Origin: a virus
Lineage: Duplodnaviria; Heunggongvirae; Uroviricota; Caudoviricetes
Virus record (IMG/VR): IMGVR_UViG_2974574029_000001
Coordinates: 31,424 to 95,423 of that record
Reading direction: 5' to 3' (one strand)
DNA: 64,000 nucleotides
In this document: piece after piece, positions 30,328-50,457 of the stretch
Numbering within the stretch: the first letter of the stretch is position 1
Layout: every line of letters begins with the position of its first letter
The notes under the pieces: generated by a model
The model's input: the letters and a program-made list of their open reading frames with translations, nothing else
What the model was told of the DNA's origin: nothing
The model's database searches: none
Program-made: the position numbers and the translations under genes

Positions 30328-30816
30328 TCAATCATCTAAATACTCGTCCAAATACCGGACATCCAATTCCCACTTTTCGCGCTTGCTTCGTTCATGATAC
30401 AAATCAAACGCTTCCTTAACATATTTCTCTGCCACATGGCGACTCACTTCATTCACTCTCATAAAGTGACGAAGGGCAATTTCACCACGCCCACGGATCC
30501 CTGCCAAACCAATATGCTTGACTTCATGACAGGAAGGACATAGCGCGATTAGACCTATCAGAGTTATCTTACCGTCTCCGAAATTCCACCTCTCATGGCA
30601 TTCAACAGGGTGTTTTGTTCCTTTACCCCCGCAGATTTCACATCGATAATTGGCCTTCTCATAACACTTCTTTCTGACAACATCCCACTGGGCTTTTGGG
30701 AGGCGAGATCGGAGATTAGTAAACCACGCGGTCTTTGGAACCAGTTCAATCTCTAATTTCAAATCACCTCCACGTTGCAGCAACAACAATATCAATAGCT
30801 CGTTCCCAGCATTCAC
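30328..30816 (-). CDS. HNH endonuclease
   Basis: CEICGGKGTKHPVECHERWNF...ALCPSCHEVKH. Confidence 0.5.
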   Translation of the reverse strand: MNAGNELLILLLLQRGGDLKLEIELVPKTAWFTNLRSRLPKAQWDVVRKKCYEKANYRCEICGGKGTKHPVECHERWNFGDGKITLIGLIALCPSCHEVKHIGLAGIRGRGEIALRHFMRVNEVSRHVAEKYVKEAFDLYHERSKREKWELDVRYLDEYLDD

Positions 30817-31318
30817 CGAGAAGATTCAAACCACGCCAGTTGGCGGGGTCATCGATACGTGTGTCATATTCGTTTAACTTAACACCCCATATGGCATCAT
30901 AAGGGGAGGCCTCTACAAACTTACGCCCAGCATCCCGATGTCCAATAGCTGCTTCGAGAACAGACCTGTTGGCCTTCATTTTCAATACAAGACCTGAAGT
31001 CACAATATCCATTCTATTCTCTTCCCAGACGCTGTTGTCGAAACCTTTTACCTGACGACCAAGAGCTTTGGCTTCATTAGGGTTATCAACCGTAGCGATT
31101 CGAGAAGCAATTTCTTTGTCATCGAAGAGCATTGCCTTCTGGAACATCATGTAATGTTCTACAGTGAAAAACTCGTAACCACCACAACGAATAGGAATAA
31201 CCTGTCGGTAGTGATTACTGAACATATCCCGGTAAGTGAAGAAAAAGACGTATTTATCAGTTACTCGCATCATTGCCTCAATGAAATGTTTTCTTACTTG
31301 GACAAGAACCCGCGCCAT
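30764..31318 (-). CDS. NADAR (YbiA/DUF1768) domain protein
   Basis: FFTVEHYMMFQKAMLFDD ... ASPYDAIWGVKL ... NLLGECW follow the conserved NADAR pattern. Confidence 0.5.
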   Translation of the reverse strand: MARVLVQVRKHFIEAMMRVTDKYVFFFTYRDMFSNHYRQVIPIRCGGYEFFTVEHYMMFQKAMLFDDKEIASRIATVDNPNEAKALGRQVKGFDNSVWEENRMDIVTSGLVLKMKANRSVLEAAIGHRDAGRKFVEASPYDAIWGVKLNEYDTRIDDPANWRGLNLLGECWERAIDIVVAATWR

Positions 31319-33204: not shown

Positions 33205-33489
33205 TCAATTGTCAATGCCGACAATTTTTCCGCCCATCCTCTCGATCTGGTTGACATGAGATACCAGTGTGCCGAGTGTGCATTCATAAGCGTATTTCTT
33301 TACGCCGCCCCAACGACGCTTCATCGTGAAGCGGATAACATGACGGGAAGATGCCCCGCGATTCATGATGGTCATTTTAAGGCGTTTAGCCAAGGCAATA
33401 ATTTCAGAATAATCAATATTTTCTTCCACTTCTTTCTCCTTTTTTCTTGATGGGGTCATTATACAGACCCCGATACGATTGTCAAACAA
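33205..33489 (-). CDS. hypothetical protein
   Basis: 94-aa ORF. Confidence 0.3.
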   Translation of the reverse strand: MFDNRIGVCIMTPSRKKEKEVEENIDYSEIIALAKRLKMTIMNRGASSRHVIRFTMKRRWGGVKKYAYECTLGTLVSHVNQIERMGGKIVGIDN

Positions 33490-34147
33490 TAATGTTTGGT
33501 TTTTTGAAAGTCCCGGGCTTCATGATTTTACCGCCTTTGTCGAAGAATACCACGCGGTCTTCTTGGCCCAAAACACCTTTAACAATACTGAAGTGAACAC
33601 CTTCATAACGACCATTGTTACGCTCCTCAATACAAGCACATTCTGCCTCAAGTGCCTCTACCAAGTCAAGATCTTTATGCAAAGACCGGACTTCGGTCAC
33701 AGTTGGGTATTTAGAATCGTTAGACTCCAGAACGCTACTCATGTTCTTATCCAATTGCATATCAAGACTAAACAGAAGAGCCGTGCTCAGTTTGAGCATT
33801 TCTTCATAATCTTCATTCGCAAAAGCATCAAAAGCTTTACCAGGAGAAAACTTAAGATCAGGATTATAGGTTAAGGATAGCGAATAGTTATTACTCAACC
33901 AATAAGCATACGACGCCACAACAAACAAGTCACACGCTCCATCAACAACTTCCTTACGGTCATTTTCGATTAATGCTGTAACGGTTTCTTGTAACTCCTC
34001 CCCTACAAACTCCCACTGCTTTTCCAATGGGGTAAATTCACCCTTTGCAGAGGCTGCGATAGAATTCCAATCTACAACATGTTTCGCATACTTAACAAGA
34101 GAGGTTGGGCGCAGCATAGCATTCAGAGTGTCATAAGCTTCTTTCAT
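33482..34147 (-). CDS. MazG-like nucleotide pyrophosphohydrolase (putative)
   Basis: FVGEELQETVTALIENDRKEVVDGACDLFVV resembles the EExxE...D MazG helix pair. Confidence 0.35.
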   Translation of the reverse strand: MKEAYDTLNAMLRPTSLVKYAKHVVDWNSIAASAKGEFTPLEKQWEFVGEELQETVTALIENDRKEVVDGACDLFVVASYAYWLSNNYSLSLTYNPDLKFSPGKAFDAFANEDYEEMLKLSTALLFSLDMQLDKNMSSVLESNDSKYPTVTEVRSLHKDLDLVEALEAECACIEERNNGRYEGVHFSIVKGVLGQEDRVVFFDKGGKIMKPGTFKKPNIIV

Positions 34148-34155
34148 TAAGTCTC

Positions 34156-34434
34156 CTAAATTGTTTTTTCAAAAACACCATCGATGGCGTATTTAATTTT
34201 TTCCCAAGTTTCTTTATCGAAACCTACCATACCACGCTGCTCATAGCCTTGGCGAGAACGGTTGTCATAATGAGCTAACTCATTGTAAGAAAGATTAACT
34301 GAACCGGGTAGGTCAGGATCTGGACGAATTGACCATCTATAGTTGTCGTTCATCGCAGAATCGTAGATATGCGCTTCAAAATCTACAGTATTTTCTTTAA
34401 TTTGATGCATCACCATCTCCTTGCGGTTGATCAC
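34156..34434 (-). CDS. hypothetical protein
   Basis: 92-aa ORF. Confidence 0.3.
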   Translation of the reverse strand: MINRKEMVMHQIKENTVDFEAHIYDSAMNDNYRWSIRPDPDLPGSVNLSYNELAHYDNRSRQGYEQRGMVGFDKETWEKIKYAIDGVFEKTI

Positions 34435-34747
34435 GACTGATACCTAAAGGTAGCCATGCCCCTGTCTTGCTTTTATACAGGCAGGTTGATTTGTACCATG
34501 AATAACTGGTCTCTGTATTCGCGGCCCAGCCGTCGAACTGACAAGTCATAGTATGCCATAATGGGGCAGTAAGGGCCAGCGTAACAAGGCCCATAACAAA
34601 TACCCAGATGACCAGCAGACGTTTAACCTTTCCAGCAACCCAGTCAAAGAAATCATCCAGCTTATCTTTTCGGAATCTGTAAGCGGCATAAATGCCGCCT
34701 CCTGTTACAAATGATGCGCCTAGTAGCGCTAGCCAATACCAGATCAT
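34397..34747 (-). CDS. membrane protein
   Basis: 116 aa with 3 hydrophobic helices. Confidence 0.3.
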   Translation of the reverse strand: MIWYWLALLGASFVTGGGIYAAYRFRKDKLDDFFDWVAGKVKRLLVIWVFVMGLVTLALTAPLWHTMTCQFDGWAANTETSYSWYKSTCLYKSKTGAWLPLGISRDQPQGDGDASN

Positions 34748-34762
34748 TTTACTGTGCCTTTG

Positions 34763-35077
34763 TTACGATAATTTGAGTATCAGGCGCACAGGGATTTGGG
34801 AACCATCGCCGAGAGACAGGATAACATCCTCCCCCATCGCACCAGTATTAGTTACGGTATAAACCTTTCCGCAAAACATGATCTCATCACCCTTACGGAT
34901 TGCTTTAGCTGGATAGTTTCCAGGTTCCCGATCAGTGTCTTCCAGAGGGTCATATGTTGCATGGAAAATTTCTGATTTGCAAGGATAGAATTCTCCAGCC
35001 ACCCCTTTAATTACATAATCCCCAGCAGAGGCTACAACCACCCCCTCTAGGTTTTTATCTCTACAGTACGACCACAA
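34763..35077 (-). CDS. hypothetical protein
   Basis: 104-aa ORF. Confidence 0.3.
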   Translation of the reverse strand: MWSYCRDKNLEGVVVASAGDYVIKGVAGEFYPCKSEIFHATYDPLEDTDREPGNYPAKAIRKGDEIMFCGKVYTVTNTGAMGEDVILSLGDGSQIPVRLILKLS

Positions 35078-35207
35078 TCACGAGTGTGGATTTCGGAATC
35101 CTTCCACACACCAGTTTCCATCCAATTATGGATCTGCCCTGCGCTGGTTGACGATCCGTCAAACTTATGTGCTTCAACCTCTACAGGTTTTTTACGATAA
35201 AATCCCA

Positions 35208-35744
35208 TTATATCTCCTTTGTCTGTCTATTGTTTTCTATATCTTCTAAAATCCTATTTGCTGCGTTTACAATGTATGCTCTAATTGGGTCATCATACCT
35301 TAAAGAAAGATTACATGCTGCCTGATATTTTCTATTTTGCCAAGCCTTATGAGCATCCATTGCTGTCTCATAGCTTCCAATATACTCTGTCTTAACAGAG
35401 TCCTTAATCTTTGCTGTATAAGGTTTTACACATTTACCGCTTTGCAAACCAACCCCGTGGGGCAAGTGAGAACCTCTACCGCCAATCGCTAAAAAAGAGT
35501 TAAGTTCTGAATCAATCAAAACACAAGTTTCTGGACTGTACAATTTGTTACCCCTGAACAAAAGGTCTTTATCAATAACCTGTGTTCCATCAAATCCAGA
35601 ACCTACTAACCAAGCCTTAAAGATAGAAAATGTTTTCCATTCTTCACAAACAGAGCATCCAATGTAGGAAGGGTTGTTTGCATGAAAGCTTTCAGAATAG
35701 CATCTTTTAAGGATGTCTTTCCATCTTGAGTAATAGACATCCAT
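35208..35744 (-). CDS. hypothetical protein
   Basis: 178-aa ORF. Confidence 0.3.
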   Translation of the reverse strand: MDVYYSRWKDILKRCYSESFHANNPSYIGCSVCEEWKTFSIFKAWLVGSGFDGTQVIDKDLLFRGNKLYSPETCVLIDSELNSFLAIGGRGSHLPHGVGLQSGKCVKPYTAKIKDSVKTEYIGSYETAMDAHKAWQNRKYQAACNLSLRYDDPIRAYIVNAANRILEDIENNRQTKEI

Positions 35745-35799
35745 GTTTCCATTTGAGTAGACTGGTGTAGAAGAATCATTTATACCGACATTATATACG

Positions 35800-37101
35800 C
35801 TAATAAGTAGGTTCCCATGTTAATGTATCTAGTTCACGAACGCTTTGACCGACAGGGAACTGAGGTACACCATCATCAGTTCTGGCCTGGAACGTGAAGT
35901 TAATAAACTTGTCCACCAGTAGCAGCATTCGTTCCTGAGAGCGCTCTGCGTGGGTTCCCTTCATTTTACAGTTGAATCGTGTTCCGTCCTGTTCTTCACA
36001 AAGCAGAACACCCTCGCCATTTTTGTCCTCTACAGAATCAAGGACTTTGGCCTCACCGTCCTGGAACAGCTTCCATTTCTGGAGATCAGAGGATCGTTGC
36101 CCGAATTCATAGACACCTTTGAAGTTTCGGATGATCGACCCTTCAAAACCTTGTTCCATGTATTTACCGATAGACCACTTAACTTCTCTCTCAGAAGTAA
36201 CAACGATACCAGCGATAACTTTTACCAATGGAACGTTGAGTTCGCACTCGACAGCATCAGTAACAGCCAGAAGGTCTTGGTGTCTGGTCTTATCGTGTTC
36301 CGTAGAATACCAAGGACTACCTGCATTCACAGGAATGTCGAAGATATGATATTCCAGGTCAAGACTTGAATAACCGCCATAACGATCAACATCTTTAACT
36401 GGTTCAATTGCGACGGAATAAACCTCACCATCATGATCTTTCCAGCTTTCTTCCCCATTGTCAACAGCTTTCTGATGACGCTTCAGGTCAGACTGATAAT
36501 CCTTTTCGATCTCATCTTCAATCTGCTCAGGTGTACGCCACTTCTTAGCAAGAGCAACAATTTTCTGTAGGCTAAGACCATGAATGTACAGCTCCCCATC
36601 AAATTTGTCAAACCCGGAATGTTCAGAAAGGGATCTGACCTGTTCAGACAACTCAGAATCAAGCGGTACAGGATACAGTTTGTTACCACGGCTATTGAAT
36701 TGTGGGAAGCCATCTGCATCAAGAGTAACCAGAGCACGTACACCATCTAGCTTAGGCTGCACGTATGCAGGATAAACTATTGATTTTGAACGTTTAATTG
36801 CGTCATGGGCCAGCATTGGGGAGAAGTTCTCTTCCTGCTCAAGCTTGCTTGTATCGTCACGATATCCAAGGCGAACCTGTTTCTCCCATTTGGAAACCGC
36901 CTCAGCCAATGCCTGCTGTTCTGCGGTGGTTTCGTTAGAACGTCCAACGTTCTTCGGTTCACAGGTGGTAACCTTTTGTTGCTTCTTACCACCAACCTTG
37001 CCAAACTCTACAACTACCTGATTACCAGCAATAAACACCTTCCAACACTGGAAAGAACCATCTTTATTAAGGGCGTACAGTGTACTGTTTACTTGTTGCA
37101 T
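35800..37101 (-). CDS. ATP-dependent DNA ligase
   Basis: Adenylation motif I YVQPKLDGVRALV (KxDGxR); 433 aa with an N-terminal extension. Confidence 0.65.
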   Translation of the reverse strand: MQQVNSTLYALNKDGSFQCWKVFIAGNQVVVEFGKVGGKKQQKVTTCEPKNVGRSNETTAEQQALAEAVSKWEKQVRLGYRDDTSKLEQEENFSPMLAHDAIKRSKSIVYPAYVQPKLDGVRALVTLDADGFPQFNSRGNKLYPVPLDSELSEQVRSLSEHSGFDKFDGELYIHGLSLQKIVALAKKWRTPEQIEDEIEKDYQSDLKRHQKAVDNGEESWKDHDGEVYSVAIEPVKDVDRYGGYSSLDLEYHIFDIPVNAGSPWYSTEHDKTRHQDLLAVTDAVECELNVPLVKVIAGIVVTSEREVKWSIGKYMEQGFEGSIIRNFKGVYEFGQRSSDLQKWKLFQDGEAKVLDSVEDKNGEGVLLCEEQDGTRFNCKMKGTHAERSQERMLLLVDKFINFTFQARTDDGVPQFPVGQSVRELDTLTWEPTY

Positions 37102-37877
37102 TATTTCTCCTTGCTTTGCAATGGTGTCTTACCTTCAAGGTGATTCTCAACCATCTTGATAAGGCCGGGATTATTAAAGGCATCAACAGCTCCGGTACGA
37201 TATACAAGAACACCCGCATTCTCATATATCATTTGTTCATCATACTTAATAGCAGGATTGACAACAACAACTTTAGTCCCCCGCACAACCGCAGGGAACA
37301 ACTCCCAGTTGAAGTTGATTACCGTGTTTGAGCAACCAACAACAATTACAAGATCTTGGTTTGTCAAGGACTCTAAGGTATCATACATAGGTCCATACGC
37401 CGGGGCATTTTCACCAAAGAAAATTACGTTTGGTTTACACCAATCATAATCATCAGGATCAATTTGGTCGTAACCAATATCGACAACCTTTATCTTCTTG
37501 GTGAAAGCATCTTTAATAAGGATCTCTTTCAGATAACCATGTATGTAAAGAGTATCTTCTTTATGGACACCAGCACGTTCCAGAAGGTCATCAACGTTAG
37601 TCGTCATGTTAACAACCTGCCCAGGATAACGTTTGTACCACTCAGCCACGCGAAGATGCGCCGCATTCGGATGTACCGTTGGTAACTCTGCACGACGCTT
37701 GTTATAAAACATGTGCGTTTTATGGTAGAAGTTACCACGGAAGGCGTGTATGTTACAAACCTCCTCAAGGTCGTATTCATCCCACAGAGCTTTACCGGAG
37801 TCAGTATCTGTACGGAATGTACGGACACCACTCTCGGCAGAGAAACCAGCGCCACTAATAACAATTAAACGCCTCAA
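37101..37877 (-). CDS. Sir2-family (sirtuin) NAD-dependent protein deacylase-like
   Basis: ISGAGFSAESGVRTFR (GAGISxxSGIxxFR), HPNAAHLRVAEW, NVDDLLERAGV...IHG. Confidence 0.6.
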   Translation of the reverse strand: MRRLIVISGAGFSAESGVRTFRTDTDSGKALWDEYDLEEVCNIHAFRGNFYHKTHMFYNKRRAELPTVHPNAAHLRVAEWYKRYPGQVVNMTTNVDDLLERAGVHKEDTLYIHGYLKEILIKDAFTKKIKVVDIGYDQIDPDDYDWCKPNVIFFGENAPAYGPMYDTLESLTNQDLVIVVGCSNTVINFNWELFPAVVRGTKVVVVNPAIKYDEQMIYENAGVLVYRTGAVDAFNNPGLIKMVENHLEGKTPLQSKEK

Positions 37878-37887
37878 TTATTTCCTC

Positions 37888-38292
37888 CTACTGTAATTTC
37901 AATGAGTTACGCAGACGACGCTCTTGAGCATCACGGGTTTCCTGCGGAACGCTGTGGACAGAATCATTGCCATGTCTGTTTTCAATGACCAAACTGAAAA
38001 CAGAATAACCAAACTCCTCAGCCATATCGATATAAGGTTGGATCTCCTTCAGGCTCGTATTTGTGTTAGAAACAATGATCCTATCAAAACCATAAGACAT
38101 TGCACCCCTGGCCTTTTCTTTGCACCATGCATGGGCTGCTGCCTGGTTTTCAGCTTTCCAGTTGTAGTCACCATTCTGGTAATGGTACGAGTCTGCCTCA
38201 CACACAGGCCACAACGAGTTTTCAGAAAGCGCATCTGCTACAGTTGACTTTCCTGCACCGGATACTCCACGAAGAATGTATAACTCTTTCAT
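37888..38292 (-). CDS. P-loop kinase, polynucleotide kinase (Pnk)-like
   Basis: MKELYILRGVSGAGKSTVADAL resembles the T4 Pnk kinase N-terminus. Confidence 0.4.
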   Translation of the reverse strand: MKELYILRGVSGAGKSTVADALSENSLWPVCEADSYHYQNGDYNWKAENQAAAHAWCKEKARGAMSYGFDRIIVSNTNTSLKEIQPYIDMAEEFGYSVFSLVIENRHGNDSVHSVPQETRDAQERRLRNSLKLQ

Positions 38293-38301
38293 TGCCTCTC
38301 C

Positions 38302-38646
38302 TCAGTAATTGTTTCTCAAGATCGTGATACGATACTTTAAGAAGCTCTCTTTTGCAAGCATGAACTTTTGTGCAGCAGAAGGATTAGACGTGTGGACATA
38401 AAGTTTAGCATCATGCACAGGAAGTTTCCCATACACAAGCTTCTCCTCCAAGGCCAACAAACAGTCATAACCTTCCTTTTCTGAATCTTCGCCCAAGTCA
38501 TTATCGAAATGCCACTCTGTGACATAACGATAGAACTTTGACCGATTATCAAGAAAGTCCATAAATTTCTGAGAGGTCTTGAACCACAACGCATCAGGAT
38601 ACCCGTAGTCTTTTGGATCTCTCAGATCATCAAGCCAGATGATCAC
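38302..38646 (-). CDS. hypothetical protein
   Basis: 114-aa ORF. Confidence 0.3.
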   Translation of the reverse strand: MIIWLDDLRDPKDYGYPDALWFKTSQKFMDFLDNRSKFYRYVTEWHFDNDLGEDSEKEGYDCLLALEEKLVYGKLPVHDAKLYVHTSNPSAAQKFMLAKESFLKYRITILRNNY

Positions 38647-39605
38647 TTTGTCACCCCAACATAAAAACGGCTACCACGGTCAAACATGTCTTCGATTGTA
38701 AAGTAATCTTCGACCACCTGACGGCGTTTTTGAGAATCCATCGCAGCCCACGTATCTTTAGAGTAATACTCACGGATATGATCCAGCAACTCATAATACT
38801 CTTCGTCAATACGCTGCTTGGCGTTCTGAGGGTTATCCCAGATCATGTCCCACTTGTTCTGGCTACCACGCATCAGGAACTTCTTCGCCAGGTAATGTGG
38901 AGACTTGATTTTCAGCAATAACTCATTGGTATCAACATCACGAACAACAAACCCTTCATGATTAACCGACTGAGAGGCCTTAACAACATCGCTGAATAGC
39001 ATATTATCCCAGCCAGCACGTTTCCAGCCATATCGATCTGCAACCTTATCAAGGTCCCATTCTGGGAGCATACCACCGCTCAAGTGGACACGGCAACCGA
39101 TCAGGTAAGCCCCAGCTTCTTCCGCAACAATGTGTGGGTCACTATCGTCACAGATTTCGAAGATAAGTGTGCATGGGCCAGCATTTTTCACGAAATAGTC
39201 CAGCATCCCGTCATGCATTGCTGAGGTGATCTTGTCTTTTGCCATTTGTGCAAATTCAGAGTCGAGTGTTCCGGTGGTAGATACAATCACCCCACCTTTG
39301 TAAACACTCATCGCTGCCATAAAGCCATTAACTTTACGAGGTACGCACACCAACTGGTCCTGTGGGACATCAGTTCCATTCTCGAAGTGGTTGAAAATCT
39401 TCGTGAAAGGCCAGATAACAACGTTGTCTTCTGCATCAACAACCATACCACGGCACTCTAACAGACGTGCGTCAGTATGCCACAGGTTATCCCAGAACAC
39501 ATTGTTCTTATACTTAAGCACAGACAGGCCCGCGAACGGGCCTTCGGTGTAAGTCTTTTTGGTTACCAGATTTTTAGCGACCAGATCGTCTACGTTGAAT
39601 TTCAT
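38643..39605 (-). CDS. RNA ligase-like nucleotidyltransferase (Rnl family)
   Basis: Motif I PRKVNGFMA (KxNG), motif IV HEGFVVRD (EGxV), motif V LKIKSPHY (KxK) in correct order and spacing. The separate DNA ligase at 35800 suggests this one is an RNA ligase. Confidence 0.45.
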   Translation of the reverse strand: MKFNVDDLVAKNLVTKKTYTEGPFAGLSVLKYKNNVFWDNLWHTDARLLECRGMVVDAEDNVVIWPFTKIFNHFENGTDVPQDQLVCVPRKVNGFMAAMSVYKGGVIVSTTGTLDSEFAQMAKDKITSAMHDGMLDYFVKNAGPCTLIFEICDDSDPHIVAEEAGAYLIGCRVHLSGGMLPEWDLDKVADRYGWKRAGWDNMLFSDVVKASQSVNHEGFVVRDVDTNELLLKIKSPHYLAKKFLMRGSQNKWDMIWDNPQNAKQRIDEEYYELLDHIREYYSKDTWAAMDSQKRRQVVEDYFTIEDMFDRGSRFYVGVTK

Positions 39606-39813
39606 TTTCTCTCCTCAATCTGAGACTTTTAAGTATTTTTAGCAGTTCTTTTTGTGCCAATTTCATTTCTTGATAGTCATCATAAATGCTCAGATCAAGC
39701 ATGTCAACATAATCTTCAAGCTCTGAGATTAAAAACGCGACATTACCCAATTGATCAAGATCTTTTTTCATAGCCTTCCGCCTGGTAATAGGTTGTATTG
39801 TACGGAGTTTCAA
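39574..39813 (-). CDS. hypothetical protein
   Basis: 79-aa ORF. Confidence 0.25.
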   Translation of the reverse strand: MKLRTIQPITRRKAMKKDLDQLGNVAFLISELEDYVDMLDLSIYDDYQEMKLAQKELLKILKSLRLRRENEIQRRRSGR

Positions 39814-40111
39814 TGCTGAAACTGACCTGGCAGAGTTCCTGAGCTAAAAATTTAGCAAGTTCAACCGCCATTTCAAGGATTTCATGCTCAGGACGCTCAA
39901 AACGAGGATACTGTATAATACGTACCGTCATACCTCGTTCAGAGCCGCCAGTATAGATGTAATCACACCAGGCTAGTTGCACACAAGCACCACGCATAGT
40001 CCATTGACGGAGCAATGGTCTTGCTGACTCCAGATCTCCAGCAATGTGGATCGTGGCATAAAAAGACTTAGATGTTTTCTTAGGTAAGAAATTACGTACT
40101 TTGTTGTGCAT
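39755..40111 (-). CDS. hypothetical protein
   Basis: 118-aa ORF. Confidence 0.3.
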   Translation of the reverse strand: MHNKVRNFLPKKTSKSFYATIHIAGDLESARPLLRQWTMRGACVQLAWCDYIYTGGSERGMTVRIIQYPRFERPEHEILEMAVELAKFLAQELCQVSFSIETPYNTTYYQAEGYEKRS

Positions 40112-40649
40112 GTATTTTCCTTACAATGTTGTGTATGAGGCTCTTGGAAACACCGTATTTTTTAGCCAAGGAAACCACCCCATGTGTTGATGATCCATAA
40201 ATATACTCATCCCTTATCTTTTCCTCAACCTCTGTAGAAAAAATAGTTTCTTTAGGCGTTGTTAATCCAAGTGAAAAGGCGTGTTCACTATTCTCTTTGG
40301 CAGTTACCCATTCGAGGTTATCCTTATGATTATTAAGCTTGTCACCGTCCTTATGATTAACAAAAGGAAGATTATCCGGATTTTCATGGAAGCAGATAGC
40401 AACACAGCGATGTACAAAATGTTTCGCAATGGTTCCATTCCTGCTCAAGAGCACACGTCTGTAACCATGAATGGAGGTCTCCCCGATTACTTCACATCCT
40501 TTCTTTATGTATCTAAAGTTTCCACTTTTAGAATAAATTGGTCGGGAATGTGAAAATAATCTACCATCATCTGTTACATAGTACAATCCTTCATATCCAG
40601 GTATGTCCTTAGTGACCATCTGCACTGTACTGCTCTTTTTCATCTGCAT
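40092..40649 (-). CDS. HNH homing endonuclease (NUMOD4 + HNH_3)
   Basis: YEGLYYVTDDGRLFS plus VNHKDGDKLNNHKDNLEWVTAKEN. Confidence 0.6.
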   Translation of the reverse strand: MQMKKSSTVQMVTKDIPGYEGLYYVTDDGRLFSHSRPIYSKSGNFRYIKKGCEVIGETSIHGYRRVLLSRNGTIAKHFVHRCVAICFHENPDNLPFVNHKDGDKLNNHKDNLEWVTAKENSEHAFSLGLTTPKETIFSTEVEEKIRDEYIYGSSTHGVVSLAKKYGVSKSLIHNIVRKIHAQQST

Positions 40650-41190
40650 ATTTATATGCCTCTTCTAGGGTCAAAGGTCTGCCCCATACATCCCAACCCA
40701 CATCCAAAATCTTCCCTTTTCCACCAACCAAACTTCCGTGGCAATGTCCATGAAGCATAACAGAACCATGATGGCACTTATCCCAAACCATCATCGGATA
40801 GTGACTCATAATAACAGTTCTCTTACCAGGAAGATCTACTCTTTTGTAATCAACAACTTCGTGACCGAATTCACGGAAGATACGTTTCGTATCTCGGTTG
40901 TCATGGTTTCCACCCACAAGGATGATCTTTCCGTTGATCTTTTCCAGGATGTCACGAACGCGAGGCTCCATATAACGACCATAAGCAATCACGAAGTCAC
41001 CAAGGTGTGCCACGACATCATCTGGTTTTACGTGCTTATTCCAGATTTCAATCATGCCTGCATTCATGGCATACAGACTTTCACGGTCTTCTTTTGGACC
41101 GTACAGGTCCTTGCGGAATTTATCACACGAGGGGAAACCAAGGATATTGGTGTGCCACCAGTGGGTATCTGACGTAACGTGGTCGATCAT
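40609..41190 (-). CDS. calcineurin-like metallophosphoesterase (Ser/Thr phosphatase-like)
   Basis: HLGDFV and GGNHDN metal-binding motifs, with a DxH at the N-terminus. Confidence 0.55.
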   Translation of the reverse strand: MIDHVTSDTHWWHTNILGFPSCDKFRKDLYGPKEDRESLYAMNAGMIEIWNKHVKPDDVVAHLGDFVIAYGRYMEPRVRDILEKINGKIILVGGNHDNRDTKRIFREFGHEVVDYKRVDLPGKRTVIMSHYPMMVWDKCHHGSVMLHGHCHGSLVGGKGKILDVGWDVWGRPLTLEEAYKYADEKEQYSADGH

Positions 41191-42431: not shown

Positions 42432-42636
42432 TACCTAGATTCTACACGTTAAAAATTTCATGTCAACACTTGACATCATCTTTTCTTCATACGATAATCC
42501 AACTTATCGAGTCACCGACTCTATGATATAGAGTATTTATACTCTGTAGTAAAAGATCTTGTTTTAGGTCTTATGTTTTATTGTTTTTAAAGATCATAAG
42601 TTAGTTTAAATGATAAGTTAGTATTGTATTCCTTTT

Positions 42637-43668: not shown

Positions 43669-44469
43669 ATGAGTTTAGAACTTCGTCTGAACAAACTGGT
43701 AGTTCCTGTCGATCACTTTACGTTCAAAGGTGGTGAAGAACAGGTTAGAATCGATATGGGGCATACTCCGAAAGGTGGTATTGGTTTCGTTGATATCACT
43801 GCTAAAATCAAGAATTCCACCGATGTCATGGCGTTAGCTATGTTGGTGGATGCATGTTCTCGTCTGGAAGGACTGCATAACCATGCTGAGTTTACCCTGC
43901 ATCTGCCATACATCCCGTATGCACGTCAGGACCGTGTGATGAATCCGGGTGAAGCGTTATCCATCAAAGTTTTCGCAAATATCGTCAACTCTCTTGGGTT
44001 TGACAAGGTCATTGTCGATGATCCGCACAGCGATGTCTCCGCTGCGTTGCTTAACAACGTTAAAATTCGTGGTCAGGATGCTCTTATTGCGGAATTCCAT
44101 GAAGGTCTTGCCGGAAAAGATGTTGTTATCGTTGCCCCTGACGCCGGAGCACGTAAAAAAGCTCAGAAAGTTTCCGATCGTCTCCGCCTCCCTCTGGTAG
44201 AAGCTGGAAAAGTGCGCGACCTGAAGACAAATGAAATTACCGGGACTGCTGTTTTCGGTGATGTTGAAGGCCGCGAGTGTGTTATTGTCGATGATATCTG
44301 CGACGGCGGTCGCACATTCATCGCCCTGGCACAAGCATTGAAGGCAAAAGGAGCAAAACGTGTTATTCTTTACGTAACTCACGGTATCTTTTCCTTCGGT
44401 AAAGAAGTTATCTACGAAGGCGGCGTTGATGAAATCTACGCGTACCACGACTGGACCGAAAACTTTTAA
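43669..44469 (+). CDS. prs: ribose-phosphate pyrophosphokinase (PRPP synthetase)
   Basis: PRPP-binding loop VIVDDICDGGRTF, VIVAPDAGARKKAQ, HGIFS. Start at MSLELR after a GAGGAG RBS. Confidence 0.7.
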   Translation: MSLELRLNKLVVPVDHFTFKGGEEQVRIDMGHTPKGGIGFVDITAKIKNSTDVMALAMLVDACSRLEGLHNHAEFTLHLPYIPYARQDRVMNPGEALSIKVFANIVNSLGFDKVIVDDPHSDVSAALLNNVKIRGQDALIAEFHEGLAGKDVVIVAPDAGARKKAQKVSDRLRLPLVEAGKVRDLKTNEITGTAVFGDVEGRECVIVDDICDGGRTFIALAQALKAKGAKRVILYVTHGIFSFGKEVIYEGGVDEIYAYHDWTENF

Positions 44470-44530
44470 TTGACAAATGAATAAGTGGGCGTACAATCGC
44501 CCTATTAAACACACAAAGGAGAAACAAAAC

Positions 44531-46222
44531 ATGCTGCATAAAGAAAGCCCACTCGTATTCGCTGACTTTTACAAACCTTCACACATCTCCATGTATGACC
44601 GACGTTCTGAAATTGTTCAGGACAACATGACACCACGCAATGCAAAGCACTTCATTCACTTCGCTGATAACGACCAGCGTGTAATGATGGCTGGTCTGCA
44701 AGGTTTCATCAAATGGTTCCTGATCGACCTGTTCAACGAAAACTTTTTCAAAATGAAAAAGAAGGCGGCTATCGCACAGTACAAAGAAATTTGTGACCTG
44801 AGCATCGGTCCTGACATGGTTGAAACCTGGGGCTTTGAAAAGCTGCATGACCTTGGTTATCTGCCACTGGAAATCCGTTCGATTCCTGAAGGCACTCTGT
44901 CTCCGGTACAGGTTCCGCTGTTCACCATTCAGAACACGCACCCTGATTTTTACTGGTTGCCGAACTTCCTGGAAAGCGTGATCTCCGCAGAGACCTGGAA
45001 AACCATCACAACTGCAACTACCTTCTGGCAATATCGCAAGCTGTCTGAAAAATGGGCTGCGGAGACCTGTGATAACAACGCCCATGTTCCGTTCCAGAAC
45101 CACTGCTTCGCTTATCGCGGTGAATCTGGTACTCACGACGCAGCACAGAGCGAATTTGGTCAACTGATCAACTCAATGGGTACAGATACCATCCCTGCGA
45201 TTCTGTATGCGAACCGTTATTACAACATGAAAGGTAAGTTCGTTGCTGGTTCTATTCCTGCATCAGAACACAGCGTTGCAACCACGAATATCGGTTTTAT
45301 CGTTGGTCGCCTGAAAACGGAAAATCCTGATCTGTCTCTGGACGAATTGCGTTTCCTGGCTGAAGTTGAATTCCTGAAACGCTACATCACGGAAATTTTC
45401 CCGAAAGGTTTTGTTTCCTACGTAGCAGACAGCTATGACTTCTGGGCGATTATCACCCGTGCGGCACTGATTCTGAAAGAAGAGATCATGGCTCGTGACG
45501 GTCGTGTGGTGTTCCGTCCTGATTCTGGCATCCCTGAACACATCATTGCTGGGTATTATATCCTGCCTGGTGAATATAAAACCTGCTCAGACGCATTTGA
45601 TGAGCTTGAGCGATTTGAAGGTCCATATACTCCTGAAGTTGTGAATGTGCAGGGTACTTGGTTCACCATTGAATATAACGAGTTCTCAGATACAACGATT
45701 ACTCGTTCAGAACTTACAGACCATGAAGTCAAAGGTGCAATCCAGTGTCTGTGGGAAATCTTTGGTGGTGAAATTAACTCCAAAGGCTACAAAGTTCTGG
45801 ACACCCACGTTGGCCTGATCTACGGTGACTCTATCACCGTTGCTCGTGCAAAAGACATCTTTGAACGTCTGAAAGATCGTGGTTTTGCATCCAGTAACAT
45901 TGTGTTCGGTGTTGGTTCCTTTACCACTCAATACACAACCCGTGATTCACTTGGTATGGCTGTGAAAGCAACTGGCGCTGTGATTGATGGTCAGCAGATC
46001 ATGGTTGTCAAAGAACCGAAGACTGACCTCGGTAAGAAATCTGCAAAAGGTTTCCTGAAGGTTGTTCGTGATGAGAATGGCGAACTGAAACTGGTTGACA
46101 ATTGTCAGCTTGAAGAGGTACAGTCTGAAGATAATGAACTGCGTCGTGTGTTCTACAACGGAAAACTGATTGTCGATGAAGACCTGACAACAATTCGTGA
46201 ACGAGCTGCTGCTCAACTGTAA
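44531..46222 (+). CDS. nadV: nicotinamide phosphoribosyltransferase (NAMPT/NadV)
   Basis: 563 aa. Conserved NAMPT blocks: FADFYKPSH at the N-terminus, GSIPASEHSV and VRPDSG. Start at MLHKESP after a strong AAGGAGA RBS. Confidence 0.7.
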   Translation: MLHKESPLVFADFYKPSHISMYDRRSEIVQDNMTPRNAKHFIHFADNDQRVMMAGLQGFIKWFLIDLFNENFFKMKKKAAIAQYKEICDLSIGPDMVETWGFEKLHDLGYLPLEIRSIPEGTLSPVQVPLFTIQNTHPDFYWLPNFLESVISAETWKTITTATTFWQYRKLSEKWAAETCDNNAHVPFQNHCFAYRGESGTHDAAQSEFGQLINSMGTDTIPAILYANRYYNMKGKFVAGSIPASEHSVATTNIGFIVGRLKTENPDLSLDELRFLAEVEFLKRYITEIFPKGFVSYVADSYDFWAIITRAALILKEEIMARDGRVVFRPDSGIPEHIIAGYYILPGEYKTCSDAFDELERFEGPYTPEVVNVQGTWFTIEYNEFSDTTITRSELTDHEVKGAIQCLWEIFGGEINSKGYKVLDTHVGLIYGDSITVARAKDIFERLKDRGFASSNIVFGVGSFTTQYTTRDSLGMAVKATGAVIDGQQIMVVKEPKTDLGKKSAKGFLKVVRDENGELKLVDNCQLEEVQSEDNELRRVFYNGKLIVDEDLTTIRERAAAQL

Positions 46223-47465: not shown

Positions 47466-47538
47466 CGTTCAGTAGCTTAGTTGGTAGAGCATGTTCTTCA
47501 TACGGATAAGGTCAGTGGTTCAAGTCCACTCTGAACGA
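47466..47538 (+). tRNA. tRNA-Met (anticodon CAT)
   Basis: Acceptor CGTTCAG/CTGAACG, T-arm AGTGG-TTCAAGT-CCACT, anticodon loop TTCATAC; no encoded CCA. Confidence 0.75.
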
Positions 47539-47541
47539 TAA

Positions 47542-47619
47542 GGCCCTCAAGCTCATAAGGTATGAGCAATCGACTCATAATCGAGAGGTAGGTAGGTTCG
47601 AATCCTCCGGGGGTCACCA
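47542..47619 (+). tRNA. tRNA with CAT anticodon (Ile2/fMet-type), atypical
   Basis: Acceptor GGCCCTC/GGGGGTC (2 G-U pairs), D-arm GCTC/GAGC, loop CTCATAA, TTCGAAT T-loop, encoded CCA. One mismatch each in the anticodon and T stems. Confidence 0.45.
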
Positions 47620-47712
47620 ATTAAAAAATGTTGACGAGGATAATTGATTGAGTTAATATCCTCATGAACATAAACGGGAGAAATTCCCAAATAAAATGCA
47701 AAGGAGAAAATT

Positions 47713-48024
47713 ATGACTAAGAAAAATTCTACTAAGAAAGTATCTGCTATTGACGCTATCAAACAGCCTTTCCAGTTTGAGTCAAAGTCTACTCAGACGC
47801 ATTCTGCTCCGCATGATGTACGTCTGGGTGGTGTAGAGAAGACTGTTTCGGTATTTGATCGCCGTAAGGGTGAATACAAGTCAGAAACCCGCATTGAGGG
47901 TGGTCAGATTATCTCTGCATCTTACCGTGTTCGCACAGGTAAGACAAAACGTGAACGTGCTGGTAAAGTGAAGGAAGCTAAGGTTATTGAAACCGTAGCT
48001 CCAAATGGTAAGAAGAAAAAATAA
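47713..48024 (+). CDS. basic Lys-rich hypothetical protein inside the tRNA cluster
   Basis: 103 aa; AAGGAGAAAATT before the ATG. Confidence 0.4.
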   Translation: MTKKNSTKKVSAIDAIKQPFQFESKSTQTHSAPHDVRLGGVEKTVSVFDRRKGEYKSETRIEGGQIISASYRVRTGKTKRERAGKVKEAKVIETVAPNGKKKK

Positions 48025-48088
48025 TTCCTCCGGCATGGGGAACAATGACGATTCCGTGAAACGTCTTTAAAAACACGGATCTTATTTC

Positions 48089-48163
48089 GGGGTATTAACT
48101 CAGTGGTAGAGTAGCCGACTCTTAATCGGTTTGTCGAAGGTTCGAATCCTTCATGCCCCACCA
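48089..48163 (+). tRNA. tRNA-Lys (anticodon CTT)
   Basis: Clean cloverleaf: GGGGTAT/ATGCCCC, loop CTCTTAA, GAAGG-TTCGAAT-CCTTC, encoded CCA. Confidence 0.75.
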
Positions 48164-48165
48164 AA

Positions 48166-48270
48166 TTTGAAATGAGAGAGATACGGGTTCGACTCCCGTT
48201 CTTGCTGGCCCGGCTCGCGTAGTGGCACAGGGCGATAGCTTAAATGGACGAAAGTGCTCTCGTTTCAAAT
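48166..48270 (+). ncRNA. structured RNA element (13-14 bp closing stem around a T-arm-like hairpin)
   Basis: TTTGAAATGAGAG (48166-78) pairs with CTCTCGTTTCAAA (48257-69). Inside lie ACGGG-TTCGACT-CCCGT and a GGCCCGGC hairpin. Confidence 0.3.
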
Positions 48271-48291
48271 CGGAACCAAAAGGAGAACAAA

Positions 48292-48480
48292 ATGTTAGGG
48301 TCATTATTACGTATGGCTGGCGATATTGTTGGTACTGCTGTTGTTGTCACTGCAACTGTTGCAGAACCTTTTGTAGATGTAGCCGCAGAAGTTCTTGACG
48401 CCGCTGATGAGATGATTGTATCTCCTACCGCAGACGTCGTTGGTGAAGTTTGCGACTCCATTAAGGACGTTGTACGATGA
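48292..48480 (+). CDS. small hydrophobic/acidic protein
   Basis: Start at MLGSLLRMAGDIVG after AAAAGGAGAA. Confidence 0.35.
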   Translation: MLGSLLRMAGDIVGTAVVVTATVAEPFVDVAAEVLDAADEMIVSPTADVVGEVCDSIKDVVR

Positions 48481-48614
48481 GTGGCGGTGTTATCTTTATC
48501 ATCATGTCAGTGATCTCTTTCCTGCTTGTTCTTTGGTATTATTGGTCATGGTTTGAAAACAACCCTACCATCGAAGAAATAGTCAAAGATTCGCTTGACA
48601 AACACAATCTGTAA
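48477..48614 (+). CDS. small single-pass membrane protein (45 aa), hand-called
   Basis: ATGA overlap with upstream ORF; MSGGVIFIIMSVISFLLVLWYYWSWFENNPTIEEIVKDSLDKHNL. Confidence 0.3.
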   Translation: MSGGVIFIIMSVISFLLVLWYYWSWFENNPTIEEIVKDSLDKHNL

Positions 48615-48655
48615 GTGTAGTATTTAAAACCTAATTTAACGCAAAGGAGAACTTA

Positions 48656-49267
48656 ATGACTGATTCTAAAACTGTAATTTCCGTAACTGAACGTGCCACT
48701 AAAGCAGTAACCACTGCCGCTACTGGTCTGACTAAGGTAGTCGCTGAACTGCAATCTCTGGCAGAAGGGTCTGAACAGATCAGCCAGGAAATTCAGTTTA
48801 AGCAGCAGGAACTGGGACAAATTGAAGTTCAGTTCAACGAAAAACTGGCTGAAGAAAAATCCAAGCTGAAGATCAAAGTTCTGGAAAACGAAGATTCCGT
48901 TCTTAACTCTATCCTGAAAGCTCGCGGCCTTGTAGCTGTAGAACCGGGTGTTGTTGACGAACTTCGTGCAGAGCTGGCTACCTCTCAGCAGAACAATGCT
49001 GAAGCTGTAGAAAGCGCAGTTGCCGACGTTAAACGTAGTGCTGCAATTGAACTGAATGCGGTTAAGGCAAATCTGGAGTCTGCTCACAAGGTTGCAATTG
49101 CAGAACTTACTGCGAACAGCAAGGCTAAGGATGACCGTATTGCAATGCTGACTGAGCAGCTTGAAGCAGCGCGTGGCGATCTGAAGGCTGAACGCGAAAC
49201 CCGTCTGGAAATCGCAAAAGCGGACGCTAACCGCCAAGGCGTAGTTGTCAATACTGGCAAAAACTAA
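48656..49267 (+). CDS. coiled-coil protein (paralog A)
   Basis: 203 aa, Ala/Glu/Lys-rich heptads; GCAAAGGAGAA RBS context shared with the next gene. Confidence 0.45.
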   Translation: MTDSKTVISVTERATKAVTTAATGLTKVVAELQSLAEGSEQISQEIQFKQQELGQIEVQFNEKLAEEKSKLKIKVLENEDSVLNSILKARGLVAVEPGVVDELRAELATSQQNNAEAVESAVADVKRSAAIELNAVKANLESAHKVAIAELTANSKAKDDRIAMLTEQLEAARGDLKAERETRLEIAKADANRQGVVVNTGKN

Positions 49268-49275
49268 TACGTAGT

Positions 49276-49301
49276 GCCGACATGGATGTCGGCTAATTTT
49301 T
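49276..49301 (+). terminator. rho-independent terminator
   Basis: GCCGACA-TGGA-TGTCGGC followed by TAATTTTT. Confidence 0.55.
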
Positions 49302-49344
49302 GAAGTTCATTAAAATTTAAAATTTATTGCAAAGGAGAATATTT

Positions 49345-49992
49345 ATGACTACCAAGATTTCTGTGACTCGTGCTCTGGCAACTCTTTCTAAGATCGAAGA
49401 CAAGATCACGAAACGCATTAACACCCTGGAAACCATCCACGTTGCTCGCGGTGAAGGTGACCGTAAGGCAATCCCAGGTTCTCTGGCTTCTGTATCTGCT
49501 TTCGAAAGCGCAGCGGTTTCTGACTTCCAAGGTCTTGTTGACTTGATGAAAGTTCGTGATGAACTGAAAGCTGCGGTAGTACAGTCCAACGCAGTTACCA
49601 AGGTAACTGTCGGTGGTGTTGAGATGACTGTCGCTCAGGCTATCGAGCGCAAGCGTACAATCGTCTTTAATGAGCAACTGCTTGCTAAACTGATTGCTCA
49701 GTACAATCATGGCAAGATTCTCCTTAAGAAAGAGAATAGCGATTTTGAGATGAAGCTGGAACAGGCTCGCGCACCTTACATCAGTCGTGATAAGGCACCT
49801 GATCCAGAGCAGATCAAGACCGTTGAAGCTCCGGTCCGTCTGATGGGTACTCCGAGCATCGTTGATCCGCTTAATTTGGCAGTTCGCATTCGTTCTCTGG
49901 AAGCAGAGATTGAAGACTTTAAGTCTAACGTTGACTTTGTTCTTTCCGAGTCAAATGCACGGACTGAAGTAGAGATTGAAGGATCAATCTAA
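49345..49992 (+). CDS. coiled-coil protein (paralog B)
   Basis: Start at MTTKISV after GCAAAGGAGAATATTT; similar N-terminus and composition to 48656..49267. Confidence 0.45.
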   Translation: MTTKISVTRALATLSKIEDKITKRINTLETIHVARGEGDRKAIPGSLASVSAFESAAVSDFQGLVDLMKVRDELKAAVVQSNAVTKVTVGGVEMTVAQAIERKRTIVFNEQLLAKLIAQYNHGKILLKKENSDFEMKLEQARAPYISRDKAPDPEQIKTVEAPVRLMGTPSIVDPLNLAVRIRSLEAEIEDFKSNVDFVLSESNARTEVEIEGSI

Positions 49993-50382
49993 AATATCTT
50001 CAGGAATTCTTGATTAACCTCTTGTAATTCCTGCGGATAGCTGGTAAAGTTTTTAAATGCTGTTTTTGGTTAGCGAAGTCAGAAACATCTTGCCTCTACC
50101 GGGGCCGGAGGTTAAACTGCTCCGAACATAATCATATAGGATGATACTTAAACGTATGTTTCCGCAGACCATACATCTGCCGAAATTGTCGAATCGCGAA
50201 TTCGAAAGACTTCAAAATTCAACACTCAAAGATTATCGTTCAAAGCTTAATGTTTAAACTTGAAACTTCTAAACCGTAAAGTTAAAATTTCTTTGATTAC
50301 TTAAATCCTGGATATAGGATCTTAGCTCACAAGATATGGCTAACTGACTCCTCCAGGCTGTTAATCGGAAACAGTATGCTTC

Positions 50383-50457
50383 GCTCTCATCGTATAATGG
50401 CTATTACAGCGGCTTTGTAACCCGTTAATCTCTGTTCGATTCAGTGTGGGAGCACCA
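50383..50457 (+). tRNA. tRNA-like, possible tRNA-Thr (anticodon TGT), degenerate
   Basis: Acceptor GCTCTCA/TGGGAGC (one G-U), loop TTTGTAA, TTCGATT T-loop, CCA. One mismatch each in the D, anticodon and T stems. Abuts the HNH start codon. Confidence 0.3.

Follow-up and report, generated by a model that had tools for sequence, protein, structure and literature searches.

Gene content of the locus

The 64,000-nucleotide stretch of DNA analysed here (the window) matches Raoultella phage Ro1 at 100% identity (NC_048682; Vequintavirinae, genus Mydovirus), and all coordinates are those of the window (position in the Ro1 record minus 31423). Within 3.3 kb on its minus strand lie genes for a P-loop kinase, a predicted RNA ligase and a metallophosphoesterase, which together probably specify a phage pathway for the healing and sealing of broken RNA. 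All three were located at the positions given in a preliminary description of this DNA, which was made from the nucleotide sequence, and belong to the families named there. In order of transcription, the minus-strand genes of the locus are as follows (aa, amino acids; ORF, open reading frame; CDS, coding sequence):

40609–41190, minus strand: metallophosphoesterase (aq_1665-type), 193 aa; Pfam Metallophos and Metallophos_2; PHROG 547
40092–40649, minus strand: HNH/NUMOD4 homing endonuclease; Pfam HNH_3 and NUMOD4; PHROG 59
39755–40111, minus strand: 118-aa ORF with a SAM-lyase-like predicted fold (AlphaFold2 and Foldseek)
39574–39771, minus strand: 65-aa ORF, an annotated CDS; PHROG 32298 matches residues 15–79 of a longer ORF
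38643–39605, minus strand: predicted Rnl1-type ATP-dependent RNA ligase, 320 aa; PF09511
38302–38646, minus strand: cREC_REC domain protein (cREC); PF20274, 6.9e-18
37888–38292, minus strand: P-loop kinase, Pnk-like, 134 aa; AAA_33
37101–37877, minus strand: Sir2-family protein (CobB-like); PF02146, 2.2e-22
35800–37101, minus strand: ATP-dependent DNA ligase; Pfam DNA_ligase_A_M and DNA_ligase_OB_2
33482–34147, minus strand: MazG-like nucleotide pyrophosphohydrolase; Pfam PRA-PH, 4.5e-5; annotated as nucleotide pyrophosphohydrolase

RefSeq labels already present at the locus are 'RNA ligase', 'phosphoesterase', 'ATPase' and 'Sir2 (NAD-dependent deacetylase)'. The genes for the RNA ligase, cREC, kinase, Sir2 and DNA ligase overlap or are separated by gaps of not more than 11 bases, the cREC start and the ligase stop overlapping by 4 bases. 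The preliminary description correctly recognised the triad, and also the separate ATP-dependent DNA ligase at 35800–37101 (DNA_ligase_A_M and OB_2 both matched), but overlooked the cREC gene, the two small ORFs and the HNH/NUMOD4 gene within the 3.3 kb, as well as the abutting Sir2 gene and, farther away, the MazG-like and RlaP genes. Upstream, a divergent pair of promoter-like sequences (nt 42439–42498; consensus matches only) coincides with the point at which the coding strand and the GC skew change sign. The promoter and terminator scans returned totals near the shuffled expectation (30 vs 22.1 and 10 vs 6.9, respectively) and are of descriptive use only.

RNA ligase, kinase and phosphoesterase

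The 320-aa protein is a predicted RNA ligase of the T4 Rnl1 type. It scores 48.3 bits against PF09511 (RNA_lig_T4_1; cut-off 28.3, E = 1.5e-12) and matches PHROG 562 (7e-66). The ligase motifs read previously from the translation, KVNG (K91), EGFVV (E217) and KIKS (K232), are all present, and R52, K69, F71, K91, N93, G94, E150, E217, G218, K232 and K234 are invariant among 25 homologues that are 49–78% identical to the window protein. A single-sequence search of the PDB with the ligase gave no match, and a profile built from homologues was required; with this, T4 Rnl1 was the sole solved structure recovered (2C5U, 1.2e-10; 9DO4, E about 1e-10). In the alignment to 2C5U the conserved residues pair with the cRG, KfF, KEDG, FEF, EGY and KIK segments, which we take to contain R54, K75, F77, K99, E159, E227-G228 and K240/K242 of T4 Rnl1. 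Mutagenesis in the Shuman laboratory reportedly found R54, K75 and F77, which lie upstream of motif I and are specific to Rnl1, to be essential. The lysine nucleophile, on which the preliminary description had made its reading depend, is in place, as K91-x-N-G is invariant (25/25) and aligned to K99 of T4 Rnl1. Motif I has N at its third position (K91-V-N-G) and not D as in the KEDG of T4 Rnl1; this residue is variable among RNA ligases.

The AlphaFold2 model of the ligase (pLDDT 90.2) has T4 Rnl1 as its best Foldseek match (E = 1.9e-13), followed by fungal Trl1 ligase domains (TMq 0.65), archaeal Rnl3, Naegleria Rnl and T4 Rnl2, with DNA ligases last. The sequence alignment to T4 Rnl1 covers the nucleotidyltransferase domain only and leaves the C-terminal domain unaligned. 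In the model, helices at residues 236–307 are included in full-length Foldseek alignments to T4 Rnl1 and Trl1, but with a root-mean-square deviation of 9–14 Å to Rnl1. Most likely, as judged from its conserved residues, the protein would seal 5'-phosphate and 3'-OH RNA ends via adenylylation of K91.

The kinase has the P-loop GVSGAGKST (G9-V-S-G-A-G-K15-S-T17), and a comparison of 27 sequences showed G12, G14, K15, T17, N76-T77, E104 and H113 to be invariant, A33-D34 to be invariant or nearly so, and R106 to be near-invariant. It matches Pfam AAA_33 (3.5e-11) and has strong PHROGs support (5.9e-55), including a match to PHROG 505 (polynucleotide kinase; 5e-9). As with the ligase, a single-sequence PDB search was inadequate (it returned P-loop noise only), and a homologue-built profile was used. 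The best solved structures were then Pnkp1 of the Pnkp1-Rnl-Hen1 complex (3.3e-7), the kinase domain of Clostridium thermocellum Pnkp (CthPnkp; 2e-5) and T4 Pnk (6e-5 to 1e-4). Weaker matches, confined to the P-loop end, were to glucokinase (3.6e-4), NRK1 (1.4e-3), gluconate kinase (5.3e-3) and adenylate kinases (E>0.01), and that to deoxynucleoside kinase was also weak (0.018). The closest solved relatives of this protein are thus polynucleotide kinases rather than dNMP or adenylate kinases, in keeping with the T4 Pnk-like N-terminus noted in the preliminary description. In the profile alignment D34 pairs with an Asp that lies in the segment RDD of Pnkp1 and SSD of CthPnkp and that we take to be the catalytic general base after the P-loop, and R106 (in the segment ENRHG) aligns with an Arg of the CthPnkp lid. 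An NCBIfam scan provided no useful model for the kinase, cREC, the ligase or the small ORFs. The protein is most likely a stand-alone P-loop enzyme resembling polynucleotide 5'-kinases, with a predicted function in the healing of 5' ends.

All five motifs of binuclear metallophosphoesterases are retained in the third protein, where D8-x-H10, G64-D65, G94-N95-H96, H130 and G148-H149-x-H151 are invariant across 32 sequences of 29–71% identity. These include the GDFV (G64-D65) and GNHDN (G94-N98) motifs seen initially, and the protein is matched by Pfam Metallophos (1.6e-5) and PHROG 547 (8.6e-51). The solved structure closest to it is that of aq_1665, an uncharacterised protein of Aquifex (1XM7, 2.9e-24), with GpdQ and MJ0936 far behind, and among solved structures the profile matched neither lambda-phosphatase nor Pnkp. 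It is therefore not of the lambda-phosphatase type that occurs in bacterial Pnkp. We propose it as the candidate 3'-end healing enzyme, which would convert a 2',3'-cyclic or 3'-phosphate to a 3'-OH.

A further small gene, between those for the ligase and kinase, encodes a cREC domain (PF20274; 65.6 bits, cut-off 27, E = 6.9e-18) in which the acidic pocket (D6-D7, D48, D50) and N88-P89 do not vary among 8 sequences. The domain was named by Aravind and colleagues, who predicted that it resolves 2',3'-cyclic phosphates or ADP-ribose cyclic phosphates (PMC9503650). On that prediction, the Ro1 protein is probably an auxiliary 2',3'-cyclic phosphodiesterase.

Linkage, distribution and fusions of the three genes

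Linkage was assessed in 80 IMG/VR loci that carry a relative of the ligase (37–92% identity), their six-frame ORFs being searched with hidden Markov models (HMMs) of the window proteins. These loci represent 44 ligase clusters at 70% identity and 10 single-linkage clusters at 50%. Kinase counts were made with a clean HMM, from an alignment (A2) free of full-length kinase-ligase fusions. By this measure 75 of the 80 loci carry a kinase; in 70 it lies no more than 1.5 kb from the ligase, and in 12 a single ORF encodes both. One such fusion (L062:9527-10825) was recognised by Pfam as AAA_33 plus RNA_lig_T4_1. The phosphoesterase is present in 65/80 loci and 38/44 ligase clusters. Median gaps to the ligase are 0 bp for the kinase and 118 bp for the phosphoesterase, and the strand is shared with the ligase in 75/76 and 64/65 cases, respectively. 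Gene order depends on the lineage, both phosphoesterase-ligase-kinase and kinase-ligase-phosphoesterase being found, while in rV5 a ligase-cREC-Sir2-MazG block is faced by kinase and phosphoesterase genes arranged as a divergent pair. When every ORF up to 5 kb from the ligase was clustered without bias, the phosphoesterase was again recovered in 38/44 clusters, followed by NadV (19), DNA ligase (16) and Prs (14), with all others in 8 or fewer.

The distribution of the genes among 50,697 phage genomes tells the same story. Ligase and kinase records number 199 and 198 for phages of Escherichia, 175 and 173 for Pseudomonas, 36 and 36 for Klebsiella, 24 and 24 for Acinetobacter, 14 and 14 for Salmonella, and 13 and 13 for Aeromonas, and phosphoesterase counts match those of the ligase within shared genera. 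Other members of the Ro1 block are far less regular companions, with cREC found in 11/80 ligase loci (on the ligase strand every time), Sir2 in 10/80 and MazG in 12/80, all three being confined to enterobacterial large-myovirus lineages. The kinase, phosphoesterase and ligase thus form a widespread core, to which cREC and the sirtuin are lineage-restricted additions.

Cellular relatives connect the same activities in other ways. In Leptolyngbyaceae cyanobacteria, the relatives nearest to the ligase (29–31% identity) are parts of single proteins of ~710 aa laid out as AAA_33 (residues 20–156), Metallophos (185–357, lambda-phosphatase-like) and RNA_lig_T4_1 (451–643). An example from Leptolyngbya sp. 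PCC 7375 (L111:6780-8918) has RtcB 1.6 kb downstream and no adjacent Hen1, and about 25 further chromosomal loci in this family carry a kinase-Metallophos-ligase protein. The HMM of the phage-type phosphoesterase did not match the cyanobacterial Metallophos domain. In Cardiobacteriaceae and Pasteurellaceae there is a 493-aa kinase-ligase fusion, with an aq_1665-type phosphoesterase gene directly downstream, in an ordinary chromosomal context. The linkage of three activities in three different architectures is the strongest support for reading the phage genes as a split Pnkp.

Genes for tRNAs and for tRNA 3' ends

Three further features of the window concern tRNA:

47466–55451, plus strand: tRNA gene cluster, 21–23 genes (ARAGORN and Rfam)
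8229–9475, minus strand: gene for a CCA-adding enzyme (cca), frameshifted; two annotated CDSs, with the PolyA_pol head domain divided between both
5312–6382, minus strand: RlaP (RNA-ligase-associated Pol-beta) nucleotidyltransferase; PF10127, 9e-14; annotated 'nucleotidyltransferase' only

ARAGORN predicted 21 tRNA genes, including those for tRNA-Lys(CUU), tRNA-Lys(UUU), tRNA-Tyr and tRNA-Thr. Two additional tRNA-like elements on the plus strand were found with Rfam only (nt 47542–47616, 42.3 bits; nt 55373–55451, 48.7 bits); both reach the gathering score and are un-annotated in RefSeq. The large cluster reported in the preliminary description is therefore real, with a count of 23 in place of 'about 24'. 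The cca gene is likewise present where it had been placed but is not intact, as a 1-base deletion at the junction 'AGCCAGATGTGACG' splits it into CDSs of 81 aa and 334 aa. In phages BIS47, KPP-1 and KpS8, cca is a single CDS of 1248 bp. Either the sequence is in error here or cca is a true pseudogene in Ro1.

The RlaP gene lies 2 kb from cca, outside the region originally flagged but in the same genome as the triad. In vitro, RlaP extends cleaved tRNA at its 3' ends by 1–2 nucleotides, and it has been proposed to restore nucleotides removed by RloC-type nucleases (preprint PMC12776372). Of 60 related loci, 42 have tRNA genes at a distance of up to 10 kb from the ligase. Separately, a transfer-messenger RNA (tmRNA) was predicted within 10 kb of the ligase in loci L045, L060 and L062, which include the kinase-ligase fusion lineage, and suppressor-like tRNAs with a CUA or UUA anticodon occur in several ligase loci.

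A putative RNA repair pathway

The genes described above are probably best understood as a phage RNA heal-and-seal pathway of the kind formed by T4 Pnkp/Rnl1 and by bacterial Pnkp, with one activity per polypeptide. In such a pathway the 134-aa P-loop kinase would phosphorylate the 5'-OH end of a broken RNA, the metallophosphoesterase would strip the 2',3'-cyclic or 3'-phosphate to give a 3'-OH, and the Rnl1-type ligase, after self-adenylylation on K91, would close the break. The substrate is most likely tRNA. In Vequintavirinae the core would be extended by cREC, as a probable auxiliary cyclic phosphodiesterase, with the sirtuin alongside. Where 3' nucleotides have been lost, RlaP and the CCA-adding enzyme could add them back, and tRNAs encoded by the phage might serve as replacements. 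We infer the substrates, the order of the steps and a role in counter-defence. Defences that cut tRNA include PrrC, RloC, PARIS, retron-Septu, Cas13 and OLD, as listed in a preprint.

The phage T4 system, Pnkp plus Rnl1 (gp63), which counters the PrrC anticodon nuclease, is also phage-encoded. It resembles the Ro1 locus in that the ligase belongs to the Rnl1 family and has identical catalytic residues, the P-loop kinase is Pnk-like and carries an aligned Asp, and the predicted chemistry is the same (5' phosphorylation, 3' dephosphorylation and ATP-dependent sealing). It differs in that T4 carries 3' phosphatase and kinase on one polypeptide, the phosphatase being a HAD domain, whereas in Ro1 the kinase is a protein by itself and a second one, a binuclear metallophosphoesterase, is the candidate phosphatase. 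In addition, the Ro1 ligase is shorter (320 aa vs 374 aa), and Ro1 adds the cREC and Sir2 genes. To our knowledge, phage RNA repair has been shown experimentally for T4 only.

Bacterial Pnkp/Hen1 systems, such as that of Clostridium thermocellum, have the same three predicted activities and also use a metallophosphoesterase as the 3' healer. The kinases of CthPnkp and of Pnkp1, from the Pnkp1-Rnl-Hen1 complex of Capnocytophaga gingivalis (4XRP), are the closest solved relatives of the Ro1 kinase, and in that complex the ligase is on a separate polypeptide, as in Ro1 (PMC4411300). The cyanobacterial relatives of the Ro1 ligase are themselves part of a Pnkp-like kinase-Metallophos-ligase protein. 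The preliminary description had proposed that the three activities of Pnkp/Hen1-type systems are here split over separate genes. Adjacency, distribution and fusions support this, but the Ro1 activities reside on three small proteins that are phage-borne and not cellular, the phosphoesterase is of the aq_1665 type, and a Hen1 methyltransferase is missing from the RefSeq annotation of the whole window (no dedicated profile scan was made).

The neighbourhood itself has been described computationally by Iyer, Burroughs, Anantharaman and Aravind (2022; Viruses 14:1977, PMC9503650) as a sirtuin-centred RNA-repair neighbourhood, type 2, with Escherichia phage V5 and Proteus phage Mydo as prototypes. 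It comprises a sirtuin, a T4-like tRNA ligase, cREC, a nucleotide kinase, MazG and sometimes a calcineurin-like phosphoesterase, and the sirtuin was proposed to remove 2'-phosphates in an NAD+-dependent, KptA-like manner (PMC9503650). The gene content in Ro1, itself a Mydovirus, is identical, with all six genes on one strand within nt 33482–41190. The gene set is therefore not new as a prediction, and its novelty is low. Where the published account is centred on the sirtuin and has the phosphoesterase as an occasional member, here it is the phosphoesterase and kinase that accompany the ligase almost everywhere, with a sirtuin or cREC in only a minority of lineages.

Several observations weigh against a heal-and-seal pathway. 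Since the aq_1665 subfamily is uncharacterised, activity of the phosphoesterase on RNA ends is an assumption, and its family is broad (1212 records, including ligase-less phages of Staphylococcus, Enterococcus and Bacillus). Three inserted genes, the two small ORFs and the homing endonuclease, part the phosphoesterase from the ligase in Ro1. In the kinase, the residue three positions past D34 is H (H37), F, Y or W, so that there is no Arg at the position of T4 Pnk R38 (the numbering of R38 and of the lid residue R126 in T4 Pnk, used for this comparison, is assumed). T4 Rnl1 also has a role in tail-fibre attachment that is independent of ligation. The synteny may have been inherited rather than selected, given that the loci collapse to the 10 clusters noted above at 50% ligase identity, and cca is frameshifted in this record. 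Finally, a literature search found no paper with an experimental test of the module or its proteins.

Sirtuin, NAD+ genes and alternative readings

First among the alternatives, and one we regard as doubtful, is that the main route at this locus is NAD+-dependent and yeast-like (Iyer et al. 2022). In that scheme cREC would open the cyclic phosphate to a 2'-phosphate, followed by the kinase and by Rnl1/Trl1-like sealing; the sirtuin would then act like Tpt1/KptA and transfer the 2'-phosphate onto NAD+, and the phosphoesterase, MazG and NADAR proteins would process ADP-ribose by-products. The fungal and plant tRNA splicing system (Trl1 plus Tpt1) does share with Ro1 a ligase fold and the combination of a kinase, a cyclic-phosphate esterase and an NAD+-using enzyme. 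Ro1 differs in being without a 2H cyclic phosphodiesterase and Tpt1/KptA, for which cREC and Sir2 are predicted to be non-homologous substitutes. Such a scheme is consistent with the published neighbourhoods of V5 and Mydo, the contiguity of the ligase, cREC, kinase and Sir2 genes in Ro1, and the single co-directional block of ligase, cREC, Sir2 and MazG in rV5. The ligase model fits fungal Trl1 domains at least as well as T4 Rnl1 (TMq 0.65), and genes for NAD+ reconstitution and NADAR are nearby (see below). The best PDB match of the Sir2 protein is CobB (1S5P, 5.3e-19), and an 11-sequence comparison shows no variation in its GAGxSxESG, TTNVDDLLERAG and HG motifs, so that the NAD-binding residues and the catalytic His are kept. 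The four zinc-binding cysteines are missing, a single Cys being found where the CobB cysteine cluster aligns.

The distribution of these genes argues the other way. Besides being rare among ligase loci, cREC and Sir2 are each found without the other (cREC in L008, L009, L035 and L056; Sir2 in L010–L012). Sir2 homologues occur in 977 phage genomes, many of them ligase-less, and are plentiful at 51–62% identity in T5-like phages, which also hold the nearest relatives of the Ro1 protein outside the genus (~60%). Salmonella phages contribute 289 Sir2 records compared with 14 for the ligase. The ligase sequence profile finds T4 Rnl1 and not Trl1, and the activities of cREC and the sirtuin are predictions only (PMC9503650). 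A yeast-like route is possible in Vequintavirinae but cannot be general, and the role of the sirtuin in the locus is uncertain.

Genes related to NAD+ metabolism that lie close to the block are:

43669–46222, plus strand: PRPP-synthetase-like and NadV/Nampt-like pair (NARP1-type NAD+ reconstitution); Pfam matches
30764–31270, minus strand: NADAR domain protein; PF08719, 3e-34; in the same minus-strand gene block

Among the 51 loci with full flanks, Prs lies within 10 kb of the ligase in 24 and NadV in 32. Besides Ro1, phages in which the NARP1-type pair adjoins the module are PaoP5, Vibrio phage Dax and E. coli phage alia; loci L083, L084 and L085 carry it, and it is found beside the triad in the unrelated Vequintavirinae, Stephanstirmvirinae, Pakpunavirus and Demerecviridae. 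Macro and NadM-Nudix genes also recur near the module, and NADAR is near it in the five closest relatives only. This neighbourhood reflects either a shared accessory island or a functional link. A broader proposal would join the two systems in Vequintavirinae, with the sirtuin replacing Tpt1/KptA and cREC replacing the 2H cyclic phosphodiesterase to give a full yeast-type ligation, the NARP1-type, NADAR and MazG proteins recycling the ADP-ribose by-products, and RNA repair plus NAD+ reconstitution forming one counter-defence unit; this we consider unlikely. The idea that the phosphoesterase is the 'phage phosphatase' that extends NARP1 against aRES was dropped, as that enzyme (Adpp) is a Macro-domain protein.

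It is very unlikely that the kinase and phosphoesterase instead heal DNA ends (3'-phosphate/5'-OH nicks) for the adjacent DNA ligase during replication, recombination or repair. Healing of DNA ends is known from mammalian PNKP and T4 Pnkp, the region is rich in DNA-metabolism genes, and the phosphoesterase has a weak NCBIfam match (5e-4, far below cut-off) to the ligase-associated PdeM family. A same-strand ATP-dependent DNA ligase is within 10 kb of the RNA ligase in 43/80 loci, and in Ro1 directly follows Sir2. Its median gap to the RNA ligase is 1754 bp, however, compared with 0–118 bp for the kinase and phosphoesterase, it is near the module in just 16/44 clusters, and the fusions are with the RNA ligase, the cellular ones joining kinase and phosphoesterase to the Rnl1-type domain. 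The DNA ligase is thus a frequent neighbour but is outside the RNA-repair core.

Least probable of all, and hardly credible to us, is that these genes share an accessory or anti-defence island but act independently, the phosphoesterase, cREC, Sir2, MazG and NADAR proteins degrading or recycling immune signals derived from nucleotides or the products of NAD+ breakdown and the Rnl1 homologue serving elsewhere, e.g. in tail-fibre attachment (like T4 gp63): the recurrent neighbours (NadV, Prs, Macro, NadM-Nudix), the ability of the NARP1-adjacent accessory enzyme Adpp to process ADP-ribose phosphates, the SAM-lyase-like ORF inside the cluster and a phosphoesterase family wider than that of the ligase are in its favour, but it leaves unexplained the kinase-ligase and kinase-phosphoesterase-ligase fusions and the near-identical distribution of kinase and ligase, and a ligase that keeps every catalytic residue argues for enzymatic use. 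These last two alternatives are the weaker ones, given that both the fusions and the distribution link kinase and phosphoesterase to the RNA ligase.

If the heal-and-seal enzymes are active, the triad would be a common means of phage escape from tRNA-targeting immunity, with an effect on host range. It is carried by more than 600 sequenced phage genomes, among them phages of Escherichia, Pseudomonas, Vibrio, Klebsiella, Acinetobacter and Aeromonas, many of which are candidates for therapy. As the concept and the exact neighbourhood are already published, the value of the locus lies in experimental follow-up and not in discovery, and it offers simple single-domain enzymes with which cREC domains and this clade of sirtuins could be probed.

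Inserted genes between the phosphoesterase and the ligase

By its predicted domains, the HNH/NUMOD4 gene is a homing-endonuclease insertion, mobile and no working part of a repair system. None of the 80 related loci has a homologue of it in the interval that separates the phosphoesterase and ligase genes; in two of them a different HNH-type ORF occupies this position. Phage 4MG covers just 71% of the region. The 65-aa ORF was recovered in 4/80 loci.

The 118-aa ORF, which occurs in the closest relatives only (L002–L006 of the 80 loci), had no match in Pfam and only uncharacterised relatives in BFVD. Its AlphaFold2 model (pLDDT 93) has as best Foldseek match in the PDB the phage S-adenosylmethionine (SAM) lyase Svi3-3 (6ZM9; E = 2.1e-5, TMq 0.62), followed by a CRISPR-associated SAM-AMP lyase (9GAD). 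Invariant or near-invariant positions are H22, G25, G41, C43-V44, Y53-T-G-G56, E58, Y68, R70 and Q95. From the modelled fold it is probably a separate, unrelated anti-defence gene. As a possible counterpart we compared the gene that precedes the phosphoesterase in phage alia and rejected it, as it has no similarity to this ORF. Homologues of the 118-aa ORF are found in PBECO4 and another phage, near 2H-SAK/CCA/Nudix or NadR-like/PnuC genes.

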